DNA of 64,000 nucleotides from Verrucomicrobiota bacterium. Its GTDB lineage: Bacteria; Verrucomicrobiota; Verrucomicrobiia; Opitutales; UBA953. A program made the translations under genes and the position numbers. Of this stretch, positions 26,763 through 42,984 are shown piece after piece; position 1 is the first letter of the stretch; every line of letters starts with the position of its first letter. Where the stretch lies: the NCBI GenBank assembly GCA_015061905.1, contig SUVQ01000008.1, positions 25,867 to 89,866 on the forward strand, written 5' to 3'. The notes beneath the pieces are model-generated. The model was given only the letters and a program-made list of their open reading frames with translations. It searched no databases and had not been told where the DNA came from.

Positions 26763-26787
26763 GTTTTTTTTTTCAAAAAAAAAATGC

Positions 26788-26818
26788 TTGACGGAGACGT
26801 TTTTTTTTTTGCGACAAT
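26788..26818 (+). promoter_or_regulatory. Putative sigma70 promoter with T11 tract in the spacer
   Basis: TTGACG (26788) - gagacg T11 gc - GACAAT (26813); same layout as 32641-32668. Confidence 0.45.
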
Positions 26819-26918
26819 CCGCAACAAGAATTGGGACAAATCGGCGGGAACGCCGCATGTGTCTCGGTTTTTACCCGCAAAATACTTTTTAACACTCACA
26901 ATTAAACTTAATCATTAT

Positions 26919-27557
26919 ATGAAAAAATATATAACACTCGCGGCTCTCCTCGCCGCCGGAACCGCCTGCGCTAACGCGGCAAAAGAAGAACTCACGCTGA
27001 CCTCGCCGACAGACGGCTCGCTCACGAGCAGCAATGCCGCTATTGCATGGGAAGACGCAGAAGTCACAGGAGCCCTTCAAAGCTGGGAAGTTACGTTTAC
27101 TGTGGCTTCGCAACGGTCGACACTTGCCGATACAGATCTTGTTTCAATCTGCGGCAAGTGGAAATTTGCTTTCAATGCTGATGGTTCTATTGAATTTTAT
27201 TCTGGTGTCGGTCAAAGCAACTATAGCGACGCCGGGTGGGTTTCTGTAGAGCCTGTTACCATTACCGTTTCGTTTGTCGGCGACTATGATATGAATGGAG
27301 TTTTCCAAGACAAAGGGGAGCTTTCCGCAACAATCGGTGAAAATACATATGCTTTGAAGGTAACTGACAATCTTGCAATTACTAGCGGTAACGTCGATAC
27401 CGGATTTCGTCTTTGGACTAATAATAAAAACGAACATTACTCGGGCATTTCGGTCGCGAAGTTAGACAACCATATCGTTCCCGAGCCGTCGGCGTTCGGA
27501 ATGCTTGCGGGACTTGGTGCGCTTGCGCTCGTGGCATCGCGTCGCCGCCGCAAATAA
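26919..27557 (+). CDS. PEP-CTERM sorting domain protein (212 aa)
   Basis: Signal peptide MKKYITLAALLAAGTACANA; C-terminal IVPEPSAFGMLAGLGALALVASRRRRK. Confidence 0.93.
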   Translation: MKKYITLAALLAAGTACANAAKEELTLTSPTDGSLTSSNAAIAWEDAEVTGALQSWEVTFTVASQRSTLADTDLVSICGKWKFAFNADGSIEFYSGVGQSNYSDAGWVSVEPVTITVSFVGDYDMNGVFQDKGELSATIGENTYALKVTDNLAITSGNVDTGFRLWTNNKNEHYSGISVAKLDNHIVPEPSAFGMLAGLGALALVASRRRRK

Positions 27558-27594
27558 TTTTTTGATGTATTAATTCATACGTTATTAAGTGTGG

Positions 27595-27630
27595 CGTTCC
27601 CGCGGCTTCGGTCGCGGGAACGTTTTTTTT
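27595..27630 (+). terminator. Rho-independent terminator whose stem is an inverted CGTTCCCG/CGGGAACG pair
   Basis: cgttcccgcg-gc-ttcg-gt-cgcgggaacg followed by a T-run. Confidence 0.85.
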
Positions 27631-27732
27631 TCGCGCAAAGCCGCAAAGTCTTTTAAGAAGTTCTCACGGATTCGCAGAGACACAGAGCTTTTTTTGAGTG
27701 CTTAGCGTCTTCGCGTCTTTGCGCGAGAATCT

Positions 27733-28953
27733 TTACTCTGCCAGCGAAAGAAGATTTTGCTTCGCGCGCAAAACGTTTTGCGGCAAGAGTTTTCCGTCGA
27801 GGCGGAAATGCCCGGCGTTCCCGAGCGGCGAGAGCGTTCCCGCGAGTGCGGCGAGGTCTCCGCGCTCCCATTCTGCGGCGATTTTTTTGACTTCGCTTTT
27901 GGAAAGCCCGCGTGTCGGGATTTCGACGGATTTTTTTTCTCCGGCGGGATTTATTCCGGTAAAGCGCAGGCAGGTTTTAGTTGCTTCCAAAGGCGAGACC
28001 AAGCGCAAAAGCTCTGTGGCTCCGGCGGGAATGTCGAAACGTTTTCCCGGTTTTTTCCCGAATGCGCTCCATGCAAATTTCAGGCAGGAAATATCGCGGA
28101 AAAGCGTGCGGTTGAGAAATTCCAGCGTTTCCGGCGGAGACCATTTGCGCACTTCGTGTTCCCAAAAAATGCCTTCGCGAAGGAGCGGGCAGGCGTGGTT
28201 TCCGAGTTCCGGCGCAAGGCGGAAAAACGGGGTTCCGGGGTTTTGTGCGACAGTGTCGCTTGCCCGGCGCAGGCGTTCTGCCGTGAGCTTCAGCGCGGGC
28301 TCGAGAACGACAATCGCACCGTTTTTCGAGAGGAGCGGCGCGAGGTTTTTTAAAAACGGGAACGCGTCTTCGCTTGCGGGAACGGCTTCGTTCAAGCTCC
28401 AGCCGAGCAGAATTAGATCCTGGGGCGGAAGCCCGAGCTTTGCGGGAACGAGTTTTTTCAAATCGCCGACAAGCGTTTCGACGGAAACTTGCGGGCTCTT
28501 CCCGCTTCCGGCGTTCTGCGCGATTTCTCGGGCTGCTTGGACGGCGGCGCGGGAACGGTCAAAAGCGGTAATGACGATTTTTCTTTCGGGGAATTTTTCC
28601 CGGAAAATTTCGGCGGCGGCAAAACCGCAGGGCGAGGCTCCGCTTCCGAGGTCGAGAATGCGAAGCGGCTCCGCGTCGCTTCCGAGCGGATTCCACGCGT
28701 AAATGTCAAGAAGCCGGCGAACGGCGAAACTTGCGCGCGCGAAACTTTGCGGAAAAAAGAAAAGCCCGTAGGCGGCAAGCAGTTTCGGGGCGCTCATATA
28801 ATCGCGGAATTTTCCGTTGACCGGGCGCTCTGTGGTAAAAAGGTCGCTCAAAGCTTCGACGGCGGGTCGCACTTTTTCGAGCAAAGTTCTGTCCGGAGTT
28901 TCGGCGGGAACGCTCCATGCTTCGCGTGCTTTTTTCAGCCAAAATTTTTCCAT
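27733..28953 (-). CDS. Class I SAM methyltransferase, Rsm22-like
   Basis: YGLFFFPQS, ILDLGSGASP, VVLEPAL. Confidence 0.65.
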   Translation of the reverse strand: MEKFWLKKAREAWSVPAETPDRTLLEKVRPAVEALSDLFTTERPVNGKFRDYMSAPKLLAAYGLFFFPQSFARASFAVRRLLDIYAWNPLGSDAEPLRILDLGSGASPCGFAAAEIFREKFPERKIVITAFDRSRAAVQAAREIAQNAGSGKSPQVSVETLVGDLKKLVPAKLGLPPQDLILLGWSLNEAVPASEDAFPFLKNLAPLLSKNGAIVVLEPALKLTAERLRRASDTVAQNPGTPFFRLAPELGNHACPLLREGIFWEHEVRKWSPPETLEFLNRTLFRDISCLKFAWSAFGKKPGKRFDIPAGATELLRLVSPLEATKTCLRFTGINPAGEKKSVEIPTRGLSKSEVKKIAAEWERGDLAALAGTLSPLGNAGHFRLDGKLLPQNVLRAKQNLLSLAE

Positions 28954-28973
28954 GATTCGGGGGTTTTGCCGGG

Positions 28974-29645
28974 TTATGCGTAGACGGTCGGGTCGGGAAG
29001 CCCGGCTTCGCGAAATGCGGCGGCGCGCTCAATGCAGGTTGCGCATTTTCCGCAATGCGCGTTCCCGCCGTTGTAGCAGGACCAAGTGAGATGAAGCGGC
29101 GCGCCGAGCTTTGCACCGAGAGCTACGATTTCGCCTTTGTTCATACCGACAAACGGGCGTTCAAGGCACACGGGATGCCAATCCGAAATGCGGACGACGG
29201 CATCGAGTTTTTCCGCAAATTCCTCGCGGCAATCCGGATAAATCGCGTGATCTCCGCCGTGCGCGGCGTAGGCGATCGTGTCGCATTTTTCGGAAATCGC
29301 CCAAGCCGTGGCGAGCGAGATGAGTAAAAGATTGCGGGCGGGAACGACGGTGTTTTTCATGCCGTCTTCGTTGTAGGCGCCTTCGTAAACGGGAACGTCG
29401 CCGTCGGTGAGGCTGTTTTTTCCGAAAAAAGCGGAAACGGCGCGTAAATCGGCGAGGCGGTATTCTACGCCGTAGTGAGCGCAAACGGCGCGCGCCGCGT
29501 CAATTTCCCGGGCGTGTCGCTGTCCGTAGTGGATGCCCAAGGCGAGCACGCGGCGCTTTTCTGCAACGAGTTTTGCCAAAAGCACCGTCGAGTCCAAACC
29601 TCCGGACAAAAGAACGATGCTGCTTTGCGGATTTTCCAAACTCAT
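28974..29645 (-). CDS. queC: 7-cyano-7-deazaguanine synthase
   Basis: SGGLDST, YGQRH, VPARN, YPDCR, TWSCY, CGKCATC. Confidence 0.97.
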   Translation of the reverse strand: MSLENPQSSIVLLSGGLDSTVLLAKLVAEKRRVLALGIHYGQRHAREIDAARAVCAHYGVEYRLADLRAVSAFFGKNSLTDGDVPVYEGAYNEDGMKNTVVPARNLLLISLATAWAISEKCDTIAYAAHGGDHAIYPDCREEFAEKLDAVVRISDWHPVCLERPFVGMNKGEIVALGAKLGAPLHLTWSCYNGGNAHCGKCATCIERAAAFREAGLPDPTVYA

Positions 29646-29683
29646 AATTGTATCAATTTATTTTTTACACGCCGTTTCGGCAA

Positions 29684-29819
29684 GAGTGGAGGTGTGGAAA
29701 AGTGGAAGAGTGGAAGAGTGGAGGAGTGGAAGAGTGGAGGAGTGGAAGAGTGGAGGAGTGGAAGAGTGGAAGAGTGGAAGAGTGGAGGTGTGGAAAAGCT
29801 TAAGAGCTTAAAAGTTTAG
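29684..29819. repeat. 8-bp tandem repeat (GAGTGGAR x14) followed by 3 AAGCTTAA-like units
   Basis: 14 in-phase units 29684-29795 in the divergent queC/plsY spacer. Confidence 0.97.
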
Positions 29820-29993
29820 TTGTTTCGCAAAGGAAACAAGGAAAAGAATCCTTTTTTTTATTTTATAAAAGTAAAACCCTCGGCTCCGTCGATTAAACAT
29901 TTCAGCTTCTCAGCTCTTAAACATTTGCCGAAGCGTGCTTCGGCAAATTTCAATTTGCGGAAACGCGGGCGGCTCGCGTAGAATTTGCCCGTT

Positions 29994-30656
29994 ATGACAG
30001 AAGTTTTCTTTTCGGCGGCAGCTCTGATTATCGGATATTTTCTCGGCGCGATCCCGTTTGCGGTCATCGTCGCAAAACGCTACGGCGTAAATATTTTGAC
30101 GGCGGGAAGCGGTAATCCCGGCGCGACCAACGTGAAGCGCACTTGCGGGAAATTTGCCGGCAATCTCGTTTTCATTCTCGATATGCTCAAAGGCTTTGTC
30201 GCGGCGTTTTGGCCGTGGTTGCTGATGGGCGCGCTGGAGCCGACCGATCCCGCCGCCGCGCAAAACTGGCCGCACGCGATCGCCGTCGCGCAGCTCTGCG
30301 GCTTTGCGGGAGCGCTTCTCGGGCATTGCTTCTCGATTTTCCTGAAATTTAAAGGCGGGAAGGGCGTTTCGACGACTATCGGCGGGCTTCTCGGCGCGAT
30401 GCCGATTGCCGTGCTCGTCGGCATTGTCGTTTGGCTTGCGGTTTATTTCCCGACGCGCATCGTCGCTGTCGCTTCAATGGTTTTCGGGCTTTCTCTGCCA
30501 CTGACATCGATGATTTTGGCGAAATTTTTCCCGTCGCTCGGCTATACGACGATTCATGTCGGCTTCTGCCTCGTGATTGCGGTTTTCATCATCATCATGC
30601 ATCGTTCGAACATTGTTCGTTTGATGCGCGGCGAAGAAAATTCGTTTAAGAAATAG
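29994..30656 (+). CDS. plsY: Glycerol-3-phosphate acyltransferase PlsY
   Basis: GYFLGAIP, GSGNPGATN, DMLKG, GHCFS, FKGGKGVST, HRSNIVRL. Confidence 0.96.
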   Translation: MTEVFFSAAALIIGYFLGAIPFAVIVAKRYGVNILTAGSGNPGATNVKRTCGKFAGNLVFILDMLKGFVAAFWPWLLMGALEPTDPAAAQNWPHAIAVAQLCGFAGALLGHCFSIFLKFKGGKGVSTTIGGLLGAMPIAVLVGIVVWLAVYFPTRIVAVASMVFGLSLPLTSMILAKFFPSLGYTTIHVGFCLVIAVFIIIMHRSNIVRLMRGEENSFKK

Positions 30657-30691
30657 GATTAAAGTTTAAAGATTAAAGCTTAAAGATTAAA
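30657..30691. repeat. 7-bp tandem repeat (GATTAAA-type x5)
   Basis: gattaaa gtttaaa gattaaa gcttaaa gattaaa directly after the plsY stop. Confidence 0.85.
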
Positions 30692-30797
30692 GAATAGGCG
30701 AAAGATAAGAGCTTAGGAGTGATAGGAATTTGCTGATTTATTTCCCGAAAATACCTGTAAGCACTCATCTATCCTCCATTACCTAAAATAATTAGCT

Positions 30798-32129
30798 ATG
30801 AATAAAACAAAAATCGGTATCGGATTTATCGGCTTCGGCACGGTCGGGCAGGGCGTTTGGAAGCACCTGCAATCACAACGCGAAGAACTCGAAGAACGCC
30901 TTGGCGTTTCGATCGCGTTCCCGAAAATCGCCGTGCGCGATCTCAAGCGCGAACGCGGCGTGAGCGTTCCCGCGGAAGTTTTGACGCTTGACCCGACGGA
31001 AGTCGTCAACCACCCGGATGTGAACATCGTTTGCGAACTCATGGGCGGCACGACGAAGGCGAAAGATTACACGCTCGCCGCACTCAAGCTCGGCAAAGTC
31101 GTCGTTTCCGCGAACAAAGCGCTTATTTACGAATTCGGGCGCGAAGTTTTCGACGCAGTCAAGGCGCACGGCGGGCATTACTACTTTGAAGCATCCGTTG
31201 CCGGCGGGATCCCGATTATCAAAACCCTGCGCGAAGGCTTAGTCGCCAACCGCTTTGAATCCATCGCGGGTATCATCAACGGCACCTGCAATTACATTCT
31301 TTCCCGCATGGAAGCGGAGGGAAAATCCTACGAGGAAATTTTGCAGGACGCGAAAAAACTCGGCTACGTCGAAGCGGACGACCGCCTTGACCTCGACGGC
31401 TGGGACGCGTTTCACAAAGCCGTCATTCTCGCGTTCCTCGCTCACGGGAAATGGGTTTCCGAGCGCGACGCACTCGTCGAAGGCATTCGCAACGTTACGC
31501 TCGAAGACATGCACCGCGCGCGCGACTTCGGCTATCGCATCAAGCTGCTCGGCATGATTCGCCGCAATTTCAAAACCGGCGCGCTCTCGCTCGGCGTTTA
31601 TCCCGCGCTCATTCCGCTCGACAAGACACTCGCACGCGTCGACGGCGTTTACAACGCGATTAAACTTTCCGGCGACGTCGCGGGAACGACAATTCTCATC
31701 GGGCGCGGCGCCGGGCAGGACGCCACTTCCTCCGCCGTCATCAGCGACATCGTCGACGCGATGATCGGCATTCGCGACGACGCGCACAAATTCCTCACAC
31801 CCAGCGACATCGACGCCTGCTACCGCCTCGGCGAAAGCGCGCGCATGGCAACGATGGACGAAATCCGCTCGAAGTTTTACCTGCGCATTTCGATTTTGGA
31901 CGAGCCGGGAACGCTCGTCGGATTCTATTCCGTGCTCGCCAAACACGGCGTTTCCGTCGCCCGCGTCGTTACTTACGAACATCCGGGCGAACGCCGCGGC
32001 ACGATTACGCTCGCGACGTATCCGACCTCGGAAGCCGTCATGGAACGCGTTGTCGACGAGCTTAAAACGCTCCCGCAAATTCTCACCGCGCCGCTTCTGC
32101 TCCGCATCTACGAGCCGACCCGCGAGTAA
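30798..32129 (+). CDS. hom: Homoserine dehydrogenase with ACT domain
   Basis: GFGTVGQG, VVSANK, FEASVAGGIPII, GIINGTCNYIL, GRGAG; C-terminal ACT. Confidence 0.96.
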   Translation: MNKTKIGIGFIGFGTVGQGVWKHLQSQREELEERLGVSIAFPKIAVRDLKRERGVSVPAEVLTLDPTEVVNHPDVNIVCELMGGTTKAKDYTLAALKLGKVVVSANKALIYEFGREVFDAVKAHGGHYYFEASVAGGIPIIKTLREGLVANRFESIAGIINGTCNYILSRMEAEGKSYEEILQDAKKLGYVEADDRLDLDGWDAFHKAVILAFLAHGKWVSERDALVEGIRNVTLEDMHRARDFGYRIKLLGMIRRNFKTGALSLGVYPALIPLDKTLARVDGVYNAIKLSGDVAGTTILIGRGAGQDATSSAVISDIVDAMIGIRDDAHKFLTPSDIDACYRLGESARMATMDEIRSKFYLRISILDEPGTLVGFYSVLAKHGVSVARVVTYEHPGERRGTITLATYPTSEAVMERVVDELKTLPQILTAPLLLRIYEPTRE

Positions 32130-32180
32130 GACACTTTTTTACGGAAGCGACACAGAAACAGGAAGCCGCTTTTTCATAGG

Positions 32181-32212
32181 AGAACAGCCGTCCCCGGCTG
32201 TTCTTTTTTTTT
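32181..32212 (+). terminator. Rho-independent terminator after hom
   Basis: agaacagccg-tccc-cggctgttct + T-run. Confidence 0.85.
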
Positions 32213-32235
32213 GTCTAAAATACCTGCGGAGTCAT

Positions 32236-32389
32236 CGTTCCATTGCGCCGCGGGAACCTCGGGGCGCGAATGCGTTCCCGTCGCGGCGCGCTTCTATATT
32301 CCTTTTACCCGGGGCGGCGACTCGCTTCGCTCGCCTGCCCCGGGTTGATTTCTTACGCCCCGTTGGGGCTTGTTTTTACCTTAAAAAAA
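32236..32389. repeat. ~154-bp REP-like multi-hairpin element, copy 1
   Basis: Direct repeat of 35764-35917; hairpins gcgccgcgggaac..gttcccgtcgcggcgc and cccggggc..gccccggg. Confidence 0.9.
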
Positions 32390-32395
32390 TAAAAA

Positions 32396-32448
32396 AGCTC
32401 CTCCCCTTGATAAGGGGAGGGGGCGCCGCAGGCGTGGCGGAGGAGTCA
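32396..32448. repeat. CTCCCCTT..AAGGGGAG hairpin repeat element
   Basis: Near-identical to 35542-35598. Confidence 0.85.
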
Positions 32449-32640
32449 AAAATTAACTTCGCGACCTTGCGTGAAATGTTTTTTTGAAATCTCGCGCCAA
32501 GCCGCCAAGCGTTTGGAAGATTTTTAATAAAAACTCTGTGGCTCTGTGTCTCCGTGAGAACTTCTTAAAAAAACTTCGCGACCTTGCGTCTTTGCGCGAA
32601 CTTCTCCTCAAAAAAAACACGTTCCCGCCGCAAATTTCCC

Positions 32641-32668
32641 TTGCGTCCGTTTTTTTTTTTCATAAAAT
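32641..32668 (+). promoter_or_regulatory. Putative sigma70 promoter with T11 tract in the spacer
   Basis: TTGCGT (32641) - ccg T11 ca - TAAAAT (32663). Confidence 0.55.
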
Positions 32669-32748
32669 CCAAAAAATAAAAGGGACAAATATGCCATGTC
32701 CCTTTTCCCAATTTAACAATACTACACACCACTTAATCATTACAAGCT

Positions 32749-35394
32749 ATGAAGACCTCAAAATTCTTCTTTTCTACCCTCATTGCAGCCTCCGCAATGA
32801 CCGCCACCGCGTATGCGGGATATGTATGGAATGGAGGCGAAACAATCACGCAGGATCTCTGGCAAGCTCAAGATAGTTGGTCTTTGACTGATAGCTCTAC
32901 TTGGACCGGTTCAGGGACCGGTCCGGGAACACCAGACTCTAACATGTGGGAACTGATTAGCATTTCTAACTCCAAGGGTGAAATTAGCGTGTTGGAGGGC
33001 TGGAATCTTCGACTTTCTCTTGTCGGGAGTGAGCTTACGGTTGATTCGTTGAAAAAATTCCAAGGCGGCTCCTGTTCCGTTAGTTTGGATGCGGACTCCG
33101 TCCTTACAATCAGCAATTTTAATGGAGGAAATGACGGCGGTTCAATTACCTTAGATAACGAAGGCATTTTTAATCTTGCTTACGGCAAAAGCCAAGGGGG
33201 AGAAGGATTTGTTGCAGATCTTGGAGAGACGGGGATTATGAAACTCACGTCTGTGAGTGGTTCGTACACGGCGAAGATTAAGAGCCTTTCTGCGGTGTTG
33301 GGGACAACAGAAGAAACTGAAACTAAAGGGGGAGTTGTTCTTTCGAATTATCGTAATTTGATTACGCTTGGCTCAGGAATGTCGTTTGATAACACCGTAA
33401 CAACATTTTCTTTCACAAATGCCGATGGCGCAGATATTACGGTGAGGGATTTATCGGAGATTTTTGAAGCCGGAATTTCTAAAAACGACGACGGAACCTA
33501 CGGAATGAAGGTCGAAGAAGGATGGTTTCTACTAAAAGACACCTCTGGCTATTCCGTGGGGTATACAGCAGGCGATTCGGTACTCGCTTTGATTTGGAAC
33601 GGTGTAGATGGATCTACATGGAATACGACGGATGCTAATTGGACAGAATCCGAAGGAGGGGAATCTAAGGTTTTTGCTAATGGCGGGAACGTTGTCTTTG
33701 ATAAAGATGCAAATGTTGTGGTAGATTCCGCAGGTGTATCTACTACTTGTGTCGGCGTGTTTGGCGGTACGGTAACGTTGTCTGGCGGTAAAGTAACGAC
33801 TCAATATATTTCTATCGAAGAAGGTGCTACATTAAAACTTGGTGGTGAAGAAGTCGTTTCCGGAACGATTGTTGTGAAAACCGGAGGAACGTTTGACTTG
33901 AATGGTTCCTCTAACGGATTTTCGTATGCAGGAGGATCTGTTGTTCTTGACGGAGGATTTTTGACAAATACGGGAGACTCTGTTGGAATCGGGGACAGGC
34001 AATTGTATACGCTTGTTTTGACGGCTGATTCGACGATTGGCGGTGGAAACGAGTTTGGTATTGTCGGGAGTGGTCATGGGGTAACGACTGCAAGCCTCGG
34101 AGGTTTCACACTGACAAAAGTCGGTTCAGGAACGGTATTATTTGCGAACAATACACTTTCAAACGGCGTTTTGGATGTCGCAGAAGGTGTCATCTCCGAT
34201 GGAGGAAAAGGGCTGACGATTGCGAACGATGCGACGTTGAAAGTGTCTGGTGGCTCCCTGAATATTACCGGTGGTTTCACGAATAACGGAACGTTGGAGT
34301 TTGCTGCGGATTATACCTATTCAGGATCAACACTTTCCGGTGGAACCCTTAAGGTTACTGGTGGAACGGCAGAGATTGCCGGAACAGCAAGTGTCAAAGT
34401 TGTGAATATCTCCGGCGGAACATTGAATGTCGGAGACGGTGGTATTCTAACGGTTAATGATAACACTAGCCTGTCCGGTGGGGATGCCGTAATCGGAACG
34501 ATTAATGTTCTGGCAGGCGGTACTGCCAAATTTTCTGGGCACGACCTCATGGGTTGGAGCCGACGAGACAATGTGATTGCTAGCTTGACTGGTTCTGAAG
34601 CGAAGACAGCGACGCTCATGCTCAACGATACGGGAAATCTTACGTTCACTTCTGATATTGAGCTGAACGGGAATGCGCGCGTTACGACAGATCGAGCCGA
34701 AGGTTCGATGTTGAATACCTTGGGCGGTCGGTTTATTGCAACCGGAACAAACAATGAAATTTCATCTATTGAGATTCAATTAAGAAATGCAGACCTCGAA
34801 GTGAAGGTTACTGACCGAGGTGATGAATTGAAAATCTCCAGCGCGATTGTAAATCACGCCGAAGGTTCTTCCGGCTTGAAAAAGACTGGCAGCGGGACAT
34901 TGGTTTTGTCCGGAGAAAATACATATACGCGTGCAACGGTCGTTGAAGCGGGAACGTTGGTTGCGGCAAGCACAAGTGCGCTTGGTAGCGGAACCGTTTC
35001 TGTGGCGAATGGTGCTAAGTTGCAGATTTCGGTTGAAAACGTTGATGCGGGAACAATCAATTTGGCTTCCGGCGCAACGCTTGTTGTCGACTTGGCTGAT
35101 TTTGCGGATGTGCTTGATGCAGACAATGAAATGCTGACGATTCTGACGGGAACGACTTTGTCCTTTGGAGATGTCGCTGCGGCATCGGACACGCTGACGA
35201 CGGAGCAATTGGGTTATTTGTCGGTTACGGACAGCTCCGGGGCATTTTCCAAATATGTAAATAAGGAATGGTCGTATGCCGGAAATACGCTTTCGCTCAC
35301 ACTTACGATTCCCGAGCCGTCGGCGTTCGGATTGTTGGCGGGCGTGGGCGCGTTGGCGTTGGTGGCGTCGCGTCGTCGGCGTTCCCGTCGCTAA
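32749..35394 (+). CDS. Large PEP-CTERM protein with autotransporter-associated beta-strand repeats
   Basis: Signal peptide; LTKVGSGT and LKKTGSGTLVLSGENTYTRATVVEAGTL; C-terminal IPEPSAFGLLAGVGALALVASRRRRSRR. Confidence 0.93.
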   Translation: MKTSKFFFSTLIAASAMTATAYAGYVWNGGETITQDLWQAQDSWSLTDSSTWTGSGTGPGTPDSNMWELISISNSKGEISVLEGWNLRLSLVGSELTVDSLKKFQGGSCSVSLDADSVLTISNFNGGNDGGSITLDNEGIFNLAYGKSQGGEGFVADLGETGIMKLTSVSGSYTAKIKSLSAVLGTTEETETKGGVVLSNYRNLITLGSGMSFDNTVTTFSFTNADGADITVRDLSEIFEAGISKNDDGTYGMKVEEGWFLLKDTSGYSVGYTAGDSVLALIWNGVDGSTWNTTDANWTESEGGESKVFANGGNVVFDKDANVVVDSAGVSTTCVGVFGGTVTLSGGKVTTQYISIEEGATLKLGGEEVVSGTIVVKTGGTFDLNGSSNGFSYAGGSVVLDGGFLTNTGDSVGIGDRQLYTLVLTADSTIGGGNEFGIVGSGHGVTTASLGGFTLTKVGSGTVLFANNTLSNGVLDVAEGVISDGGKGLTIANDATLKVSGGSLNITGGFTNNGTLEFAADYTYSGSTLSGGTLKVTGGTAEIAGTASVKVVNISGGTLNVGDGGILTVNDNTSLSGGDAVIGTINVLAGGTAKFSGHDLMGWSRRDNVIASLTGSEAKTATLMLNDTGNLTFTSDIELNGNARVTTDRAEGSMLNTLGGRFIATGTNNEISSIEIQLRNADLEVKVTDRGDELKISSAIVNHAEGSSGLKKTGSGTLVLSGENTYTRATVVEAGTLVAASTSALGSGTVSVANGAKLQISVENVDAGTINLASGATLVVDLADFADVLDADNEMLTILTGTTLSFGDVAAASDTLTTEQLGYLSVTDSSGAFSKYVNKEWSYAGNTLSLTLTIPEPSAFGLLAGVGALALVASRRRRSRR

Positions 35395-42883: not shown

Positions 42884-42984
42884 TACACGCAGAAAAAAAA
42901 ATATTGCGAATAAAAAAAAAAAAAAAACGCTTGCGCTCGACGCAATAAAAATTTTTATTGGACTCTCTTTAAATTAATTCGGAA

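Follow-up and report, generated by a model that had tools for sequence, protein, structure and literature searches.

Two PEP-CTERM genes with a shared upstream design

The stretch of DNA analysed here (the window) comprises 64,000 nucleotides (nt) from a Verrucomicrobiota bacterium of the order Opitutales (GenBank assembly GCA_015061905.1, contig SUVQ01000008.1, positions 25,867 to 89,866 of the forward strand). The genome to which it belongs (labelled G000) has a size of 2.08 Mb, a G+C content of 52% and 17 contigs, and 56 of its open reading frames (ORFs) encode PEP-CTERM proteins. Two of these genes, gene 1 and gene 2, are preceded in the window by a common arrangement, called the cassette below, in which a run of 11 T residues lies between a -35-like and a -10-like hexamer and is followed by a hairpin-forming leader. 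The features of the two sites are as follows, in window coordinates.

26764..26784, + strand: UP-element-like T10-C-A10, just 5' of the -35 of gene 1
26788..26793, + strand: -35-like TTGACG of gene 1; cTTGAC is kept in about 30 cassette promoters and matches the -35 before tRNA genes
26800..26810, + strand: T11 tract of gene 1 in a spacer of 19 nt; 2 nt separate it from the -10
26811..26818, + strand: GC plus the -10-like GACAAT of gene 1 (hexamer 26813-26818); GCGA(C/A/G)AAT is kept in families A and B
26826..26872, + strand: 5'-proximal leader stem-loop of gene 1, outer stem AAGAAUUGGGACA with UGUCUCGGUUUUU, inner hairpin CGGCG-GGAA-CGCCG
26833, + strand: GGGACAAAT of gene 1, whose GGGACA pairs with TGTCTC at 26860
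26907..26917, + strand: CTTAATCATTA box of gene 1, directly 5' of the ATG in a leader without a Shine-Dalgarno sequence
26919..27557, + strand: coding sequence of gene 1, a 212-amino-acid (aa) PEP-CTERM protein of family A that begins MKKYITLAALLAAGT
27593..27633, + strand: intrinsic terminator of gene 1, inverted CGTTCCCG / CGGGAACG arms forming a 14-pair stem, then T9
32641..32646, + strand: -35-like TTGCGT of gene 2, a family C promoter with a weaker -35
32650..32660, + strand: T11 tract of gene 2, within a 16-nt spacer, then CA
32663..32668, + strand: -10-like TAAAAT of gene 2, assigned by conservation
32678..32706, + strand: 5'-proximal leader hairpin of gene 2, AAAAGGGACA, a 9-nt loop and UGUCCCUUUU
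32682, + strand: GGGACAAAT of gene 2, pairing with TGTCCC at 32697
32732..32742, + strand: CTTAATCATTA box of gene 2, 5' of the ATG at 32749
32749..35394, + strand: coding sequence of gene 2, an 881-aa PEP-CTERM protein of family C that begins MKTSKFF

When the sequence was re-read, both sites were found to carry TTG(A/C)NN, T11, a -10-like hexamer, GGGACAAAT and CTTAATCATTA where a sequence-only reading of the window had placed them, and the spacers have the lengths which that reading gave, 19 and 16 nt. The pairing that it proposed for GGGACA with TGTCTC or TGTCCC is also the minimum-free-energy structure (z -3.7 and -3.8). By themselves the short motifs are weak evidence in the window; GGGACAAAT has two occurrences for an expectation of 0.54, a count also attained in 12 of 100 shuffles. 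In gene 1, the last T of the tract, GC and the -10 together read TGCGACAAT, an extended -10-like TGn. The CTTAATCATTA box is common to family A and part of family C. The terminator arms of gene 1 are inverted copies of a hyper-abundant octamer of the genome, and such an octamer-built terminator is found 3' of most family-A genes, with a T tail ranging from T7 to T11 between paralogues and assemblies.

Both products match the models of PEP-CTERM cargo (PEP motif, hydrophobic helix and Arg-rich tail), with scores of 19.1 bits (gene 1) and 17.8 bits (gene 2) for TIGR02595 (cut-off 16) and of 23.3 and 21.2 bits for PF07589 (cut-off 20.7). The gene 2 product also has a PATR / autotransporter-type beta-strand repeat. 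An exosortase of the EpsH family is encoded in the same genome (PF09721, 118 bits, G000:C6:42589-43554). Public assemblies call gene 1 as a 257-aa ORF with its ATG at 26784, inside the promoter, and the T11 is annotated as codons (DVFFFA); the true start is most likely that of the MKKYI signal peptide at 26919.

Genome-wide spread and anatomy of the cassette

The sequence-only reading had also proposed that the design is shared across the PEP-CTERM family. A comparison of the upstream regions of all 56 genes bears this out, since 34 carry a T9-T11 run 98-119 nt 5' of the ATG in the same context, and the design recurs in sister species. The strict pattern TTGAC-N7-10-T9-GCGANAAT gives 26 matches in the genome and 0 in the reversed control. 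It is limited to some species of the genus (among 41 relatives and 81 family members), and a scan of 185,579 species genomes shows it clustered in these Opitutales metagenome-assembled genomes (MAGs) alone. A metagenome scan with the looser GCTTGACGG-N12-20-GCGACAATC returned, among the matches listed, only chance hits and no Spyradosoma promoter. A few cassette copies precede genes for other secreted proteins. Homopolymers are indeed common in the intergenic DNA of this genome, as the same reading had cautioned; that leaves the fixed context unexplained, and 21 of the genome's 42 T11 runs belong to the cassette design.

The cassette is built in a constant order. UP-like DNA is followed by cTTGAC, three to six variable bases, a pure tract of T9-T12, two bases (usually GC) and then GA(C/A/G)AAT or TAAAAT. 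A stem-loop begins about 7-10 nt past the -10, and after a leader of 30-50 nt, which is A/C-rich and without a Shine-Dalgarno sequence, the cassette ends in the ATG and a family-specific signal peptide. The spacer is 17 nt in one promoter, 18 nt in 10 and 19 nt in 18, and 15-16 nt in family C.

In family A, the UP-like DNA consists of a T run, C and an A run before cTTGAC in all promoters, the T run being 6-23 nt long. In strain L003, the T10-C-A10 of gene 1 is replaced by T17-C-A5. No homopolymers in the genome are longer than the distal T runs of the gene 1 paralogues (T18-T21; T20-T23 between assemblies). In families B and D, a TACC-N5-GGTA dyad and A/T-rich DNA replace this element. The dyad lies about 10 nt 5' of the -35 (e.g. 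C5:69761, C12:94243 and, on the minus strand of C10, 212357) and is also seen before a few promoters without a T tract. The dyad may be the binding site of a dimeric regulator.

The tRNA genes of this genome offer a reference for its ordinary promoters. They are preceded by an A run and CTTG(A/C)N, with the tRNA about 37-47 nt later, and their modal spacer to an nAnnnT hexamer is 17 nt (9 of 20 candidates). Because the same A run and CTTGMN occur there, the cassette appears to use the ordinary -35 / UP grammar of the organism. The -35, -10 and transcription start site (TSS) assignments are predictions drawn from conservation and from this tRNA promoter grammar.

Several other assignments were tried and rejected. 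A generic T-run promoter is not supported, as A.AAT after T runs outside the cassette is equally frequent in sense and antisense; hexamer enrichment gave A/T richness only, TTGAC-Nx-TAnAAT has no spacer peak genome-wide, and a -10 definition by a position weight matrix anchored on the A run plus CTTG was too noisy. The T tract is not the tail of an upstream terminator, as no hairpin precedes it and the stem at 32629-32645 has only five pairs. The TTGrGnC box of the leader does not serve as a -35, having no -10 at 16-19 nt beyond it in any family. An ATTTG-N3-CAAAT dyad, considered as an operator, is present in family B only and absent from the conservation of families A, C and D. TTAACA-N16-18-(A/C)AT(C/T)AT beside the ATG was discarded as a promoter because its TSS would land within the coding sequence. 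Contig L196 begins 83 nt 5' of the ATG because the assembly broke at a repeat, and this start is not a transcript end.

Purity of the tract and its poly-G counterpart

When the pattern was searched without any demand for a T run (-35, -10 and leader box only), 30 sites were found in five genomes, and all of them carry an uninterrupted T run of at least nine (21/21 here and 9/9 in the relatives). The six spacer bases beside the run vary freely while the run stays pure.

In sister species the same spacer position is occupied by G residues, in the pattern TTGACAACTTTTA-G7-13-TA(A/G)AAT. These promoters read TTGACAACTTTT(G)A followed by G7-G13 that directly abuts TA(A/G)AAT. There are 6-13 copies each in genomes G001, G002, G007 and G013 and 1-2 in G018, G004 and G014, and 23 of 30 sampled copies precede PEP-CTERM genes, mainly of the homologous MKKYI family. 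The reversed pattern gave 0 matches, and none were found in other genera of the family. With runs of G7 to G10 the spacers measure 14-18 nt, the lengths being spread over the paralogues of a single genome, and likely orthologues in G002 and G013 are one G apart. Some genomes have both tract types; for example, G010 has one G13 promoter. The leaders of the poly-G clade are short and without the hairpin of the T clade, and the homopolymer spacer is retained. The purity and position of the repeat are therefore kept across relatives (30/30 pure; poly-G at the same position), whereas its length is not: the spacers of orthologues range from 17 to 20 nt, and orthologues in the window's genome and in G016 are 1-2 nt apart. 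This is the central comparative result: since poly-T and poly-G are unlike in their mechanics and alike in being slippage-prone, the conserved feature is a homopolymer that sets spacer length and not T-rich DNA.

Tract-length variation among near-identical assemblies

The clone of the window is represented by about 30 public assemblies from one goat-gut sample set, which differ by 0-1 single-nucleotide polymorphism per kb. Nine cassette promoters were compared across them for consensus tract length, with the following result.

Gene 2: T11 in 10/10 assemblies
Gene 1: T11 in all contigs examined
C2 promoter: T11, 10/10
C3 promoter: T10, 3/3
C15 promoter: T10, 2/2
C5 promoter: T10 : T11 = 5 : 5
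C10 promoter: T9 : T10 = 4 : 2
C12a promoter: T11 : T10 = 7 : 3
C12b promoter: T12 : T11 = 8 : 2

The T11 of gene 1 was read directly in L002, L004, L195, L197 and L198, and it can be deduced in 24 contigs (33 index blocks) because the called ORF of the exact 257-aa product spans the tract. The two tracts for which length variation had been suggested are invariant, and one-base differences occur at four of the nine spacer tracts. At C12a and C12b, which lie 10 kb apart on one contig, all four length combinations are present, suggesting recurrent change and not two lineages. The neighbouring T12, T9 and A8 at the C12b locus are constant. The excess over control runs reaches significance only when counted per observation, with 12/65 spacer lengths differing versus 4/83 (p = 0.014), a comparison in which the samples are related and not independent. 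In the diverged strain L003 the gene 1 tract is again T11 and that of gene 2 is T10, and most of the other long tracts differ by one base.

The leader hairpin

A conserved 5' hairpin had been proposed from the two sites, and the wider comparison upholds it. Fifteen diverged leader types share one fold at the same distance from the -10, with z-scores from -1.8 to -4.7 in 11 of the 15. Most combine an outer stem with an inner hairpin, variable in sequence, and an AAAU bulge, while gene 2 and a paralogue have a single stem and loop. The predicted free energy is -23.8 kcal/mol for gene 1 (z -3.74) and -12.0 kcal/mol for gene 2 (z -3.84), and in both cases 0/200 shuffles are as stable. A cross-family MAFFT alignment put the 3' arm out of register, and pair counts were therefore made on family A alone, where 91% of cells are paired versus 34-47% with the partners slid, and two pairs are compensatory. 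Between families, changes from U-G to A-U at two positions and from A-U to C-G at one can be seen by eye.

The 5' arm is a conserved (A-rich)UUGrGnC followed by CAAAU, which is unpaired and kept in sequence. Many 3' arms are followed by U4-U10, a tract found in families A, C and E; its absence from B and D makes a universal attenuator unlikely. A search with the covariance models of Rfam 15 found no match anywhere in the window. The simplest reading of the modelled folds is a stabiliser of the 5' end, perhaps with a sequence-specific partner, and the conserved 5' arm and CAAAU bulge hint at an added recognition role. At 26842-26856 and in family B leaders, the inner loop is GGAA within the octamer CGGGAACG (CGGCG-GGAA-CGCCG and CCG-GGAA-CGG), suggesting that this putative uptake- or HIP-like octamer doubles as an RNA tetraloop hairpin.

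Evolution of the cassette

Among 17 family-A paralogues, median identity is 80% in the 130 nt upstream, 85% in the signal-peptide codons, 57% in the middle, 85% in the anchor codons and 78% in the 100 nt downstream, terminator included; some paralogues have identical promoters. This layout of conserved flanks and a variable middle resembles that of the Mycoplasma Vlp family. At about 315726 (+) of contig C10 in G000 there is a hybrid remnant, CTTGACGGGCACG, T7, G12 and a terminator-like aagccgccaagccgcgaag, in which the cassette -35 is joined to a tract of both T and G, and leader and gene are both missing.

A proposed mechanism and its alternatives

We propose that each of the two sites is a copy of a modular expression cassette, which serves a large family of exosortase-sorted surface proteins in a sub-clade of Candidatus Spyradosoma-like Opitutales. 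The promoter would be of the housekeeping, sigma-70-like type with the homopolymer filling its spacer, and the transcript would probably start about 7 nt past the -10 and open with a stable stem-loop. The homopolymer (T9-T12 here and G7-G13 in the sisters) would set the distance from -35 to -10, 17-20 nt as compared with the modal 17 nt at tRNA promoters. One-base slippage in replication would then change the promoter strength of each gene heritably and reversibly, as a contingency-locus switch or rheostat, and a clone would vary the surface proteins that it displays. Phase or rheostat variation through the spacer homopolymer is the best-supported reading of the sequences; it is plausible yet unproven, and on balance we lean towards it. 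We are more hesitant about its extension to a genus-wide contingency system, possible as this is, in which about 30 genes with their own slippage-prone spacers of poly-T or poly-G would yield combinatorial surface variants and the conserved flanks would allow exchange of passenger domains.

A number of points weigh against slippage-driven variation. The effect of tract length on transcription is a prediction, and by Escherichia coli rules the modal 19-nt spacer would be suboptimal for most promoters; with a TGn before the -10, spacing may matter less. In family C, the -35 is of another and weaker kind, with spacers of 15-16 nt. Both named tracts are T11 in every assembly of the clone. Terminator T10 tails, taken as controls, also vary, in 1/10 and 2/10 assemblies, and a T21 control ranges from 20 to 23; counted per tract, 4/9 spacer versus 3/12 control runs vary (p = 0.40). 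The consensus length differences could partly be assembly noise, and the narrow distribution of T lengths, mostly 10-11, also fits purifying selection on a fixed element.

The main rival explanation is that the T tract is a fixed structural element of a strong constitutive promoter, one-base changes being neutral or mildly deleterious noise. It might act as a rigid spacer of the A-tract type, as a T-rich -16 region with an extended -10 as in Campylobacter and Helicobacter, or as a T-tract spacer motif of the extracytoplasmic function (ECF) type. Much of the geometry is in keeping with such a role: the tract lies a constant 2 nt from the -10 but 3 to 6 nt from the -35, the last T and GC form the extended TGn, and tract lengths stay within a narrow range, whereas in the same promoters the distal T runs span 6 to 23. 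The T11 consensus at both named loci in all assemblies and the variation of control T10 tracts point the same way. However, the total spacer differs between orthologues (17-20 nt), T runs elsewhere are unlinked to -10-like motifs (sense equals antisense), and four length combinations are present at two linked tracts in near-identical genomes. Moreover, poly-G, with quite different DNA mechanics, stands at the same position in the homologous promoters of the sisters, and it is mostly because of this replacement that the fixed-element explanation is weakened; we regard it as rather unlikely, though it deserves serious consideration.

Control might instead reside mainly in the leader RNA, as an attenuator or terminator or as a site (UUGrGnCAAAU) for a protein or small RNA, with the T tract incidental. 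The place and shape of the hairpin are kept across diverged subfamilies, the unpaired CAAAU and the 5' arm are kept in sequence, many 3' arms lead into a U tract, and the inner loop is often GGAA inside the abundant octamer CGGGAACG. This explanation is nevertheless improbable as the principal control, given that families B and D have no U tract, no Rfam family matches, covariation in family A is modest (two pairs changed on both sides), and the poly-G clade keeps the homopolymer spacer with short, hairpin-free leaders; it is also compatible with spacer-length variation and not exclusive of it. That the similarity is a mere by-product of recent duplication or gene conversion, without regulatory meaning, would agree with the 80-85% identity of family-A flanks and with the identical promoters of some paralogues. 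Yet the coding middles are at about 57% while promoter, leader, signal peptide, anchor and terminator are conserved, the design spans subfamilies (A, B, C and others) that differ in signal peptide and size, it is kept in several species, and the T run is pure while adjacent spacer bases vary. We consider this last explanation very improbable.

Comparison with known systems

Phase variation through a homopolymer in the promoter spacer is known for porA (poly-G) and opc (poly-C) of Neisseria meningitidis and for vlp (poly-A) of Mycoplasma hyorhinis. As in those systems, surface genes carry a pure mononucleotide run within the -35/-10 spacer, its length sets that of the spacer, and tract lengths differ between paralogues and strains; as in vlp, the genes form a multigene family whose 5' regions and signal peptides are conserved and whose bodies vary. 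In contrast to them, the host here is a gut Verrucomicrobiota commensal known from MAGs only, the cargo is of the PEP-CTERM / exosortase kind at about 30 loci per 2-Mb genome, the tract nucleotide is T or G depending on the sister lineage, and the effect on expression is a predicted one. In Helicobacter pylori sabA, a poly-T tract 5' of the -35 acts as a rheostat, and the T-rich -16 regions of Campylobacter and Helicobacter are impure runs that form a general promoter feature. The likeness to these is that T tracts near the core promoter would tune its geometry and that the T run abuts a TG-extended -10; the differences are that the cassette tract is pure and lies in the spacer, and that T runs elsewhere in the genome are unlinked to -10 motifs. 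The leader recalls the 5' untranslated region of E. coli ompA, in which a 5'-terminal stem-loop stabilises the mRNA. In both cases a stable hairpin lies a few nt from the 5' end of the mRNAs of abundant envelope proteins, although here that end is predicted and the 5' arm and CAAAU bulge are conserved in sequence.

Further cases related to promoter-spacer homopolymer phase variation are described in PMC6389960 and PMC5084427. For proteobacterial PEP-CTERM genes, regulation by a PrsR-binding motif and a sigma-54 -24/-12 promoter has been predicted, together with other cis motifs outside the Proteobacteria (Haft et al. 2006, PMC1569441); it is the sole cis-regulatory model published for PEP-CTERM genes. 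The cassette genes resemble that system in being mostly single-gene units with long upstream regions and a shared conserved cis element, and differ from it in the sigma-70-like promoter, the homopolymer spacer and the RNA hairpin. The genome has rpoN, but the sigma-54 pattern TGGYAY-N5-TTGC was found upstream of 0/56 PEP-CTERM genes (1/56 in a relaxed form), and the sigma-54 / PrsR design was rejected. In gut Bacteroides and Akkermansia, invertons control surface structures (PMC13343947). They likewise give heritable, reversible surface heterogeneity in gut commensals including Verrucomicrobiota, by site-specific DNA inversion and not by the repeat slippage proposed here. The phase variation documented in Verrucomicrobiota is that of invertons, and slippage at simple sequence repeats (SSRs) goes no further there than a suggestion for Akkermansia capsule genes (PMC13343947, PMC3048395). 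Our full-text literature searches found no report tying PEP-CTERM genes to promoter repeats; the homopolymer-spacer promoter design is known from pathogens and as yet unreported in this bacterial group.

Other homopolymers and a related contig

The window contains a C12 run at 1484-1495, i.e. G12 on the minus strand, followed on that strand by TAGAAACTAAAAT. Its longest homopolymer is A16 at 42912-42927 (T16 on the minus strand), about 28 nt 5' of a minus-strand ORF that begins MDFMSLNSLEIG. The genome has 18 G runs of at least 8, up to G15, some of which abut -10-like hexamers. One of them, a G9 on contig C10, lies just 5' of, or within, an ORF of more than 4776 aa, and could be a translational slippage switch at this giant adhesin-like gene. 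A 327-kb contig, L001 (ERZ27317638 k141_444438), encodes an identical 443-aa homoserine dehydrogenase with the same upstream acyltransferase; its other neighbours differ, with no PEP-CTERM genes nearby and no A/T run of at least 8 within 15 kb.

Significance

The cassette is a concrete, testable cis-regulatory design for the PEP-CTERM cargo of Verrucomicrobiota, unusual in its breadth of about 30 loci and informative in its T/G dichotomy. With a strong promoter, a 5' hairpin, a signal peptide, an anchor and a terminator, it offers ready-made parts for expression work in Opitutales or Akkermansia relatives. The swap from poly-T to poly-G is a natural experiment on what is under selection, telling mutable length apart from DNA structure, and homopolymer consensus differences between MAGs at cassette sites ought not to be discarded as errors. 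If tract length controls expression, a gut commensal with a 2-Mb genome spends about 1.5% of its genes on a contingency-locus family, and SSR-based surface variation would reach past the classical pathogens and the inverton paradigm of the gut. A genus-wide system, if real, would have a scale like that of Neisseria or Mycoplasma, in an uncultured commensal and on the PEP-CTERM pathway.

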